Origin: a virus
Taxonomy: Duplodnaviria; Heunggongvirae; Uroviricota; Caudoviricetes
Strand: one strand, 5' to 3'
DNA length: 40,199 nucleotides
IMG/VR virus record: IMGVR_UViG_2681813201_000021
A model generated the notes under the pieces. It saw nothing but the letters and a program-made list of their open reading frames with translations. It had not been told where the DNA came from and did no database searches. This document shows positions 5,394 to 6,523 of this stretch, piece by piece (within the stretch, counting starts at the first letter, position 1; every line of letters starts with the position of its first letter). The position numbers were made by a program, and so were the translations under genes.

Positions 5394-5520
5394 TTCATAC
5401 ACCTGCTTTAACATGAGTGCCTAGTGGCACAACATGACTCAACGAATCATCCTGGACTTCATATGCCCCAGGCGGCTACTTCGTGGGCGTCCTGCCTGTT
5501 CGTTATCTTTGATATAAAAT

Positions 5521-5534
5521 CTAACTTAACTTAG
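5521..5534. promoter_or_regulatory. Putative OL operator half-palindrome CTAACTTAACTTAG
   Basis: Same 14-bp CTAAN-N4-CTTAG architecture as the two sites between cI and cro; further CTTAG repeats at 5565-5569 and 5578-5582. Confidence 0.4.
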
Positions 5535-5598
5535 TTATTATGGCAAGAAAAACACCAAACTTTTCTTAGTTCGGTGCCTTAGTTAGAGAAGAGAGGTC

Positions 5599-6225
5599 TT
5601 AGAGTTCGTATTGAACTCCTTTGACTACACCAATGATAAGGCAATTACCATTGATAGGGATGTTGGGATACCGAGGATTTAATGGCACTAAAAACTTTTG
5701 AGGGCCATCGATGACTAATTTTTTTACTGTAGCTTCGTTTGTTCCATCAAGTCGAGCGATGACTATTTTTCCATGACGAGGTTCTGCATCTGGATCTACA
5801 ATCACTGTTGCGCCTTCTGGTATTGTTGGGAGGCCATTAGGGTTAGTCATGGAGTCACCTTTAACCTCTAATGCAAATGAGTTATCACCAATCTTTAATG
5901 ATGTATCTACCCACTTGTCCACTTCACTAAACACTTCTGCTGCCCTGCATTCAGTAAACTGCCCAGCCTGAACCCACGATATTACAGGAACTCTGCGCAT
6001 GTTTGTGACGAGTTTGCCTTCAAACTCAGCACCATAAAGAATGTAATCTATTGACGTATTGAAGAACTTCGCTAATTTCGAAAGTGCCTCCCCACCAGGG
6101 GTATTGATGTCTTTCTCCCAGTACCCCACAGCAACGTCGCTTACTCCACAAAATTTACCCAATTCTTTCTGGGACGTTCCGGTAACTCTTCTCAGAGCTT
6201 TTATACGCTGACCAACCGTTTCCAT
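5599..6225 (-). CDS. cI: CI-like repressor (HTH_XRE N-terminus plus S24 LexA-type peptidase C-terminus)
   Basis: 208 aa; N-terminal HTH, C-terminal ...VKGDSM...Ser/Lys autocleavage region; divergent from cro. Confidence 0.9.
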   Translation of the reverse strand: METVGQRIKALRRVTGTSQKELGKFCGVSDVAVGYWEKDINTPGGEALSKLAKFFNTSIDYILYGAEFEGKLVTNMRRVPVISWVQAGQFTECRAAEVFSEVDKWVDTSLKIGDNSFALEVKGDSMTNPNGLPTIPEGATVIVDPDAEPRHGKIVIARLDGTNEATVKKLVIDGPQKFLVPLNPRYPNIPINGNCLIIGVVKGVQYEL

Positions 6226-6247
6226 AGGAGCACCATTTCTTGAATTG

Positions 6248-6261
6248 CTAAGTAATCTTAG
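6248..6261. promoter_or_regulatory. Operator site CTAAGTAATCTTAG (perfect palindrome) in cI-cro intergenic region
   Basis: Perfect dyad CTAAG-TAAT-CTTAG; overlaps the -35 region of putative PR. Confidence 0.55.
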
Positions 6262-6267
6262 TTTTTA

Positions 6268-6296
6268 TTGACCAAAGATAGATTTGTAATTAGCAT
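6268..6296 (+). promoter_or_regulatory. Putative PR promoter (TTGACC, 17-nt spacer, TAGCAT) driving cro
   Basis: -35 TTGACC at 6268-6273, -10 TAGCAT at 6291-6296; flanked by the two operator palindromes. Confidence 0.4.
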
Positions 6297-6310
6297 CTAA
6301 TAAAACTTAG
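6297..6310. promoter_or_regulatory. Operator site CTAATAAAACTTAG (imperfect palindrome)
   Basis: Second copy of the 14-bp motif, immediately downstream of putative -10 and upstream of cro RBS GGAGGG. Confidence 0.5.
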
Positions 6311-6322
6311 TTTGGAGGGCGT

Positions 6323-6523
6323 ATGACAACTGACGATATCGAAAGCTACTTCGGCAGTATTGAGAAAGTTGCTGCTTTTTTCGGCATAACAACTGAAGCC
6401 GTTTATCAGTGGCGAAACCGTCCGGGCCAGTTAATTCCAAAAGGACGTGCAGCAGAAGCTGCATATAGAACTTGCGGACGGTTGCCATTTAAACCTGAGC
6501 TTTATGAAAAATCTAATGGATAA
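6323..6523 (+). CDS. cro: Cro-like HTH regulator
   Basis: 66 aa, HTH KVAAFFGITTEAVYQW; RBS GGAGGG; divergent from cI across the operator region. Confidence 0.8.
   Translation: MTTDDIESYFGSIEKVAAFFGITTEAVYQWRNRPGQLIPKGRAAEAAYRTCGRLPFKPELYEKSNG

Follow-up and report, generated by a model that had tools for sequence, protein, structure and literature searches.

The closest described systems are the immunity switches of the lambdoid phages P22 and 21. The operator consensus of P22 is ATTTAAGATATCTTAAAT (PMC5175364); bases 2 to 7 and 12 to 17 of the P22 operator are contacted and bases 8 to 11 are not, and a symmetric operator with C at position 3 (3C) was bound only non-specifically by P22 repressor (PMC4267663). 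The spacer between the P22 repressor and cro genes runs OR3, AAAC, TTGACT, OR2, TATAAT, OR1, and the spacer analysed here follows the same plan, down to TTGAC(T/C)AAAGAT. The order OR3, −35, OR2, −10, OR1 is common to P22, phage 21 and this locus, with operator spacings of 25 and 23 bp in P22 and 25 and 24 bp here, and PR of P22 occupies the same position. On the left, an OL1 inside PL and a distance of 35 bp between OL1 and OL2 are likewise shared with P22 and 21. Half-sites in both P22 and this locus have the geometry xTAAG-N4-CTTAx around four central bases. Homology of the N-terminal repressor domain and of Cro, the four-base centre and the spacing thus all place the locus with P22 and 21, whereas the operator specificity of those phages (half-site ATTTAAG, with T at position 3) was not found. 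The immunity region is very probably a bistable cI-Cro switch of the P22/phage 21 type, with CTAAG-N4-CTTAG sites as the operators to which we infer that its repressors bind.

The window, by which we mean the whole 40,199-nucleotide stretch of DNA analysed, was identified as a lambdoid prophage with an SfV/e14 backbone integrated at thrW. A near-identical copy is carried by E. coli CRE1493, where it adjoins tRNA-Thr downstream of proA, and at least 465 of 5,426 complete E. coli genomes contain most of the 2.1-kb immunity region. Rfam and tRNA scans of the window returned no matches. The gene context assumed in the earlier note was borne out, with cI reading leftward and cro rightward, by open reading frames and by HTH_3, Peptidase_S24 and P22_Cro matches that all exceeded their Pfam cutoffs (Table 1); replication genes lie downstream of ymfL. 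The cI product combines an N-terminal helix-turn-helix domain with a LexA-like S24 self-cleavage domain and shares 47% identity over 205 amino acids with P22 c2, the N-terminal domain of which, alone and DNA-bound, also provides the closest solved structures (1ADR, 2R1J and 3JXB). The self-cleavage motifs QAGQ (residues 86 to 89) and GDSM (residues 123 to 126) both aligned with P22 c2, and a KKL lysine motif was read off the window sequence at residues 168 to 170. The small Cro shares 30% identity with P22 Cro, and its nearest solved structure is that of N15 Cro (2HIN).

Table 1. Genes and predicted regulatory features in and around the immunity region (positions in the window)
Feature	Position	Strand	Remarks
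Integrase gene	1-1164	-	
91-aa ORF	5118-5393		PL reads toward it
PL, predicted early leftward promoter	5518-5546	-	TTGCCA (5546-5541), 17 bp, TAGATT (5523-5518); consensus scan
OL1, CTAACTTAACTTAG	5521-5534	.	Between PL -35 and -10, overlaps -10
cI terminator (tImm equivalent), predicted	5545-5578	-	Hairpin 5551-5578 (core 5553-5576), U tract 5545-5552
OL2 (probable), CAAACTTTTCTTAG	5556-5569	.	8/10 half-site positions; centre 35 bp from OL1 centre
cI-type prophage repressor gene, 208 aa	5599-6225	-	ORF; Pfam HTH_3 (E 1e-10) and Peptidase_S24 (E 9e-28)
OR3, CTAAGTAATCTTAG	6248-6261	.	Both half-sites perfect; sole exact match in window
PR, predicted early rightward promoter for cro	6268-6296	+	TTGACC (6268-6273), 17 bp, TAGCAT (6291-6296); consensus scan
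OR2 (putative), CAAAGATAGATTTG	6273-6286	.	Weak, 7/10 half-site positions of CTAAG/CTTAG; in PR spacer
OR1, CTAATAAAACTTAG	6297-6310	.	Directly after PR -10 hexamer; covers expected PR start (~6303)
cro-type lytic repressor gene, 66 aa	6323-6523	+	Pfam P22_Cro 42.8 bits, cutoff 30.2
ymfL, YmfL/CP76 CII-family gene	6543-7112	+	

The layout of a lambdoid switch was found: divergent cI and cro genes, three symmetric candidate operators in the spacer between them that overlap PR, and a second set at PL beyond cI, consisting of OL1 and a probable OL2. The three 14-mers quoted in the earlier note (CTAAGTAATCTTAG, CTAATAAAACTTAG and CTAACTTAACTTAG) were all located, and the search for the 14-mer that it had proposed gave a non-random result in the window at up to one mismatch. 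The sequence CTAAGNNNNCTTAG occurred once exactly, against an expectation of 0.02, and three times when one mismatch was allowed, against 0.52; three such matches were reached in 3 of 100 shuffles. All three copies fell in the non-coding DNA on either side of cI, some ∼280 bp in which the expected number is ∼0.004. With ≤2 mismatches allowed, matches were no more frequent than background (9 found, 9.8 expected), and weaker copies are therefore not callable by similarity alone.

Conservation was assessed in a footprint set of 12 sequences, comprising the window, phages mEp460_4F5 (L002) and LLS (L003), and nine prophages (L084 to L092) from Enterobacter, Kosakonia, Serratia, Kluyvera and Rahnella. 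The N-terminal repressor domains of these relatives were 82 to 98% identical to that of the window and their cI DNA 70 to 77% identical (96% for mEp460), and only 6% of cI third-codon positions were invariant across the set, which is near saturation. Despite this divergence, the CTAA and CTTAG columns of OR3, OR1 and OL1 were invariant, and the −35 of PR and the TA...AT of its −10 were invariant or nearly so, while the central operator positions and the remainder of the spacer varied. This pattern suggests that the half-sites of OR3, OR1 and OL1 are under purifying selection. In every relative with ≥82% domain identity the CTAA-N5-CTTAG sites numbered exactly three and occupied the corresponding positions, and a Gilliamella prophage with 55% domain identity also had three, the left one farther from cI. 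Loci with other DNA-binding domains (L094 to L096, 33 to 39% identical, and SfV) had none.

Linkage was also approached from the motif, by scanning viral contigs for two CTAA-N5-CTTAG sites 35 bp apart, which identified at least 120 loci. Among the matches listed, all 117 that were correctly oriented and had enough flank carried a homologue of the repressor DNA-binding domain directly to the left, with 45 to 100% identity and on the expected strand in every case; 12 apparent misses fit a reverse reading of matches symmetric enough to score on both strands. Prophages with the operator pair occurred in hosts ranging from Enterobacter to Gilliamella, a bee symbiont. As cI and cro travel together, comparative data cannot assign either protein to a site. 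The earlier note had held that these sites define the immunity specificity of the prophage, and three results speak for that: half-sites are invariant and centres variable in diverged relatives, the motif is tied to the homologous repressor domain among the matches listed and absent from loci with other domains, and heteroimmune phages have the same architecture with other motifs at the equivalent positions. That an AT-rich word simply recurred by chance at these sites, in intergenic DNA that is itself AT-rich, has almost nothing to recommend it beyond the background count at two mismatches and two unconserved CTTAG copies (at 5578 and 5598). For OR1, OR3 and OL1 it is already refuted by the clustering of close matches beside cI, by half-sites that stayed invariant where synonymous positions were saturated, and by the unbroken repressor linkage among the matches listed.

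In the right operator region, the earlier note had described two palindromes bracketing a plausible PR in front of cro, and a consensus scan placed PR between exactly these two sites, with OR3 upstream of the −35. Both sites stood, but the count did not, as a third and weaker site between them (OR2) had been overlooked. Centre-to-centre spacing is 25 bp from OR3 to OR2 and 24 bp from OR2 to OR1. Among the matches listed there were 39 distinct spacers, in which OR3 kept its CTAA and ATCTTAG columns throughout, the −35 of PR was TTGACC in 33 of 39 and the −10 retained TAnnAT in 38 of 39. The OR2 columns in these spacers read C-W-A-A-G-N4-A-T-T-R-G, with the two A positions kept in 39/39 and 38/39 and TT in 39/39; the scan pattern fixed only the outer two sites and had left these columns free. 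A sigma-70 promoter spacer requires no particular sequence, and the OR2 pattern falls inside the PR spacer. In Rahnella the site is the palindrome CTAATAAAGATTAG, and P22 OR2, ACTAAAGATTCCTTTAGT, agrees with it in register and spacing. The site is accordingly labelled here as the putative third operator of OR by its position and conservation rather than by similarity. An alternative register for the middle site, TTGACCAAAGATAG (6268 to 6281), matched only 5 of 10 half-site positions with spacings of 20 and 29 bp and was dropped, the register in Table 1 being the one that fits P22 OR2 and the Rahnella palindrome.

A candidate for the maintenance promoter PRM lies within OR3. The minus strand of OR3 carries TAAGAT (6260 to 6255, operator positions 4 to 9) reading toward cI, and OR3 of P22 and of phage 21 carries TAAGAT at identical operator positions, also reading toward the repressor gene. 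The plus-strand AT at 6255-6256 that completes this hexamer was invariant in 39/39 OR3 sequences among the matches listed, whereas the equivalent columns of OR1 varied. This suggests that TAAGAT is the PRM −10, with a start near 6248 and a leader of ∼23 nt carrying a weak GGTG. OR3 lies ∼22 nt from the cI start, with GGTG as a weak Shine-Dalgarno sequence, whereas in P22 OR3 abuts the c2 start. No recognisable −35 was found; other −10 candidates, downstream of OR3, were merely AT-rich and variable between relatives, and a literature search for the geometry of P22 PRM gave nothing usable. The placement of PRM is accordingly a tentative one, in which the overlap with OR depends on the TAAGAT hexamer. 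With TAAGAT as −10, the centre of OR2 would fall near −31.5, so that activation of PRM from OR2 at −42, as in lambda, is unsupported by this geometry.

Two of the strong sites touch promoter elements, since OR1 abuts the PR −10 (TAGCAT|CTAAT) and the TAG of OL1 lies within the PL −10 (TAGATT), and the whole region is AT-rich. The motif could in principle be kept as promoter architecture, or as a site for YmfL/CII or a host factor, rather than as a cI/Cro operator, but this is very unlikely. OR3, the best palindrome, lies outside the PR core promoter; the same two-fold symmetric motif is found four or five times, spaced as operators would be; and between SfV and the window the motif changes with the cI/cro module while ymfL and the flanks stay. 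Activators of the CII type use direct repeats at a −35, unlike palindromes placed over lytic promoters, and the phage 21 annotation gives such a CII-type site as ttgy-N6-ttgy.

Turning to the left operator region, OL1 was identical across all 12 sequences compared, and a CTAA-N5-CTTAG site lay 725 to 774 bp left of OR3 in 109 of 110 loci among the matches listed. The PL −35 of the relatives is mostly TTGACC. The earlier note had described related repeats downstream of cI where OL and PL would be expected. Its CTAAC-type site is OL1, conserved and within PL, and of its CTTAG repeats the copy at 5565 to 5569 held as the right half of OL2 and part of the hairpin of the predicted cI terminator; the further CTTAG copies at 5578 to 5582 and 5598 to 5602 did not hold as operators, since they are unconserved (TTTGG and GCTAG in mEp460) and look like chance, the latter overlapping the cI stop codon. 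A possible site on the other side of OL1, GTTCGTTATCTTTG (5498 to 5511, downstream of the PL −10 and 23 bp from OL1), was rejected because the stretch is partly common to the leader of the heteroimmune SfV and is unconserved in LLS, L088 and L089. The 5′ leader of PL as a whole folded no better than shuffled sequence (z, −0.35).

Immediately upstream of PL, a hairpin on the cI strand encloses OL2; after the stem come UUUUUCUU and, directly adjoining it, the PL −35. The minus-strand RNA had a predicted folding energy of −15.5 kcal/mol (z, −2.8) compared with a z of −0.16 for the plus strand, and folding of the alignment kept 11 pairs, one of which had changed on both sides. One-sided changes that preserved pairing gave G-U pairs, workable only on the minus strand. 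This hairpin was absent from the output of a simple terminator scan. Its strand specificity, U tract and kept pairing nonetheless point to a terminator of the cI transcript, at which transcription would end. That the same stretch also contains OL2 is suggested by position and conservation rather than by similarity. An operator-like 14-mer occupied this position in every relative among the matches listed, sometimes as a clean palindrome such as CTAAATTAATTTAG, and the spacing from OL1 was 35 or 36 bp. The phage 21 record annotates OL2 35 bp from OL1, as here, and the P22 sequence has the same OL1-OL2 layout. The operator palindrome doubles as the terminator stem in some relatives, one case being GCCTAAAATTATTTAGGC, after which the cI strand has a run of T.

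Conservation of OL2 is partly attributable to the RNA hairpin, as an invariant 3′ arm of G and U tolerates changes in its partner. It might thus be argued that 5545 to 5578 is an intrinsic terminator of cI only, that the left CTTAG copies are not operators and that OL consists of OL1 alone. The strand-specific hairpin with its U tract fits this account, the G/U-rich 3′ arm accounts for its own invariance, OL2 has two mismatches, the level at which matches reach background frequency, and the OL1-OL2 spacing shifts between 35 and 36 bp. We nevertheless find it the less likely account, given that in 10 of the 11 sequences aligned CTAAG was kept in the loop and 5′ arm, even though the sequence of a loop is free to vary, that distant relatives have clean palindromes (CTAAATTAATTTAG or CTAATAAAACTTAG) at the position, some without flanking stem arms, and that OL2 of phage 21 is annotated at the same 35-bp distance and P22 has the same layout. 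We therefore retain the site as a probable OL2 that also forms part of the terminator. An OL3 would be expected ∼29 bp beyond OL2, as in phage 21, but nothing operator-like was found at 5585 to 5598, where the cI stop codon follows.

Several features separate the locus from P22 and 21. In P22 numbering the window sites read nnCTAAG-N4-CTTAGnn, and C occupies position 3 and G position 16 in all strong sites, in contrast to T at position 3 in P22 (CTAAG compared with TTAAG). The contact map of the P22 operator explains which columns of the window sites are conserved and which vary. The recognition helix also differs, being SDVAVGYWEK in the window and SNVAISQWER in P22. P22 and 21 have an OL3, for which no counterpart was found in the window, and their repressor terminator lies beyond it, whereas the one predicted in the window overlaps OL2. 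A YmfL/CP76-type gene takes the place of c1, and next to PL no antiterminator of the gene 24/N type was recognised. Given 3C sites and a P22 repressor without specific 3C binding, heteroimmunity toward P22 and 21 is expected. Judged from its sequence, the switch is one that works like that of P22 but lies outside the P22/21 immunity group.

A more specific proposal, which we put forward tentatively as a little short of an even call, is that the locus is a natural position-3 variant of the P22 repressor-operator system with OL2 built into the stem-loop of the cI terminator. If true, the same ∼30 bp would both bind protein as DNA and signal termination as RNA. Literature searches with the three 14-mers, mEp460 and the ymfK/ymfT operators did not find this operator specificity described, nor reports of binding, footprint or reporter assays on CTAAG-N4-CTTAG. 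The DNA specificity of these operators is thus apparently undescribed, although E. coli often carries prophages of this type. With the operators known, superinfection immunity groups could be predicted from sequence, and PR, PL and module boundaries could be annotated in SfV/e14-like prophages. Set beside the solved structures of P22 repressor on DNA, this natural system could also help to show how a single base at operator position 3 is discriminated. The picture of how a lambdoid switch works is unchanged; this is an ordinary member of the P22/21 family, real and well supported.

The mechanism that such an arrangement would allow can be outlined, with binding, the order in which sites fill, the existence and control of PRM, and termination all deduced from sequence. 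Dimers of the cI-like repressor would bind two-fold symmetric operators of 14 bp, probably 18 bp, through half-sites of the form (A/T)nCTAAG, the four central bases presumably remaining uncontacted. Repressor bound at OR1, over the PR start, and at OR2, in the PR spacer, would turn off cro and the early right operon; bound at OL1, which lies between the −35 and −10, and at OL2, it would turn off PL. As OR3 overlaps the likely PRM −10, high cI, or Cro, would lower cI transcription. Cro, as a P22_Cro family member, presumably binds these sites too but ranks them differently. Prophage induction would follow RecA-stimulated self-cleavage of cI at Ala-Gly, and the hairpin before PL could end cI transcripts and so keep maintenance transcription out of the early left operon.

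Lambda and the window are alike in their divergent cI and cro genes, a tripartite OR with ∼24-bp spacing, OL and PL beyond cI, a repressor with a LexA-like self-cleavage domain, and a terminator, predicted in the window, that separates the maintenance transcript from PL. The lambda operators are 17 bp with a sequence unrelated to that of the window sites, lambda Cro has a different fold, and lambda carries rexAB between cI and OL, unlike the window. The positions of the operators relative to PR and PRM differ between the two by about one helical turn.

Phages SfV, SfII and SfIV and the e14 element (ymfK-ymfT-ymfL) share the prophage backbone of the window. The SfV-type flanks are also common to both, with the PL 5′ leader and an orf33 homologue on the left and ymfL on the right, whereas the immunity regions between them differ in the cI DNA-binding domain, in cro and in their repeats. 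In SfV the module differs from ∼5500-5512 to the end of cro and has GGTAC-type repeats at the equivalent positions; the SfV record annotates only a putative operator region. As homology with the SfV group breaks at ∼5500-5512 on the left, these modules appear to be heteroimmune cassettes in one backbone. Other repeats were found at the equivalent positions elsewhere: ACAC..GTGT in Serratia and Morganella prophages, CTAAA..TTTAG in phage vB_EcoS-689R5 (55% domain identity), mixed CTAAA, CTTAG and TTTAG halves in a Klebsiella phage, and ATAAG..CTTAT in Acinetobacter phages (44% domain identity). An inner TAAG-N4-CTTA thus appears common to a wider P22-like clade, in which the outer base and the centre-adjacent base would distinguish the immunities.

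The putative operators on the lytic promoters, OR1 (6297-6310) at PR, which is the predicted promoter of cro, and OL1 (5521-5534) at the predicted leftward promoter PL, usually lacked a G at base 5 of the left (plus-strand) half. The left half of OL1 was CTAAC in all 12 close relatives (the window included), and among the matches listed from the viral-contig scan, OR1 carried G at this position in only 7 of the 39 distinct cI-cro spacer sequences. In contrast, OR3 was nearly always symmetric, with the base-5 G present in 36/39 of these listed sequences. Judged from sequence, this consistent asymmetry of OR1 and OL1 versus OR3 may determine how strongly cI and Cro bind relative to each other.

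Sites of the CTAA-N5-CTTAG type were also identified in a prophage (L093) of Gilliamella mensalis, a honey-bee gut symbiont, the repressor domain of which is only 55% identical to that of the window. These sites retained the 49-bp spacing found in the window, and one matched its OL1 sequence exactly. The sequence matches indicate that CTAA-N5-CTTAG specificity is far older and wider than E. coli. Among the viral-contig matches listed, the palindrome of the probable OL2 formed the stem of the predicted repressor terminator in several relatives (GCCTAAAATTATTTAGGC, followed on the cI strand by a run of Ts); thus, operator and terminator are fused differently across the clade.

Further features of the window and of the L093 prophage
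Feature	Coordinates	Strand	Remarks
PL leader, ~118 nt	window 5415-5512		common to heteroimmune SfV and several other relatives
ORF without Pfam match	window 4955-5200	+	converges on 5118-5393 (-)
ORF without Pfam match	window 5118-5393	-	annotated in SfV (orf33) and RefSeq
LexA-N-terminal-domain-like ORF, 108 aa	window 9539-9865	+	early right operon
CTAA-N5-CTTAG sites	L093 1416-1478 and 2313-2326		Gilliamella mensalis

Sequence comparison identified the PL leader as nearly unchanged in the relatives sharing it. Homology with SfV and other relatives ends at ~5500-5512, which marks the left boundary of the exchangeable immunity cassette. Taken whole, the leader folded no better than shuffled sequence, so that overall folding does not account for its conservation. 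The two convergent ORFs left of PL overlap by ~80 nt, and the plus-strand ORF may be spurious, as annotation in SfV and RefSeq covers only its minus-strand partner.

The 108-aa ORF looks like the N-terminal DNA-binding domain of LexA and lacks the S24 cleavage domain; its homologue in strain CRE1493 is annotated in RefSeq as a 'LexA family transcriptional regulator'. If expressed from a phage, a noncleavable LexA-like protein could perturb the SOS regulon of the host.
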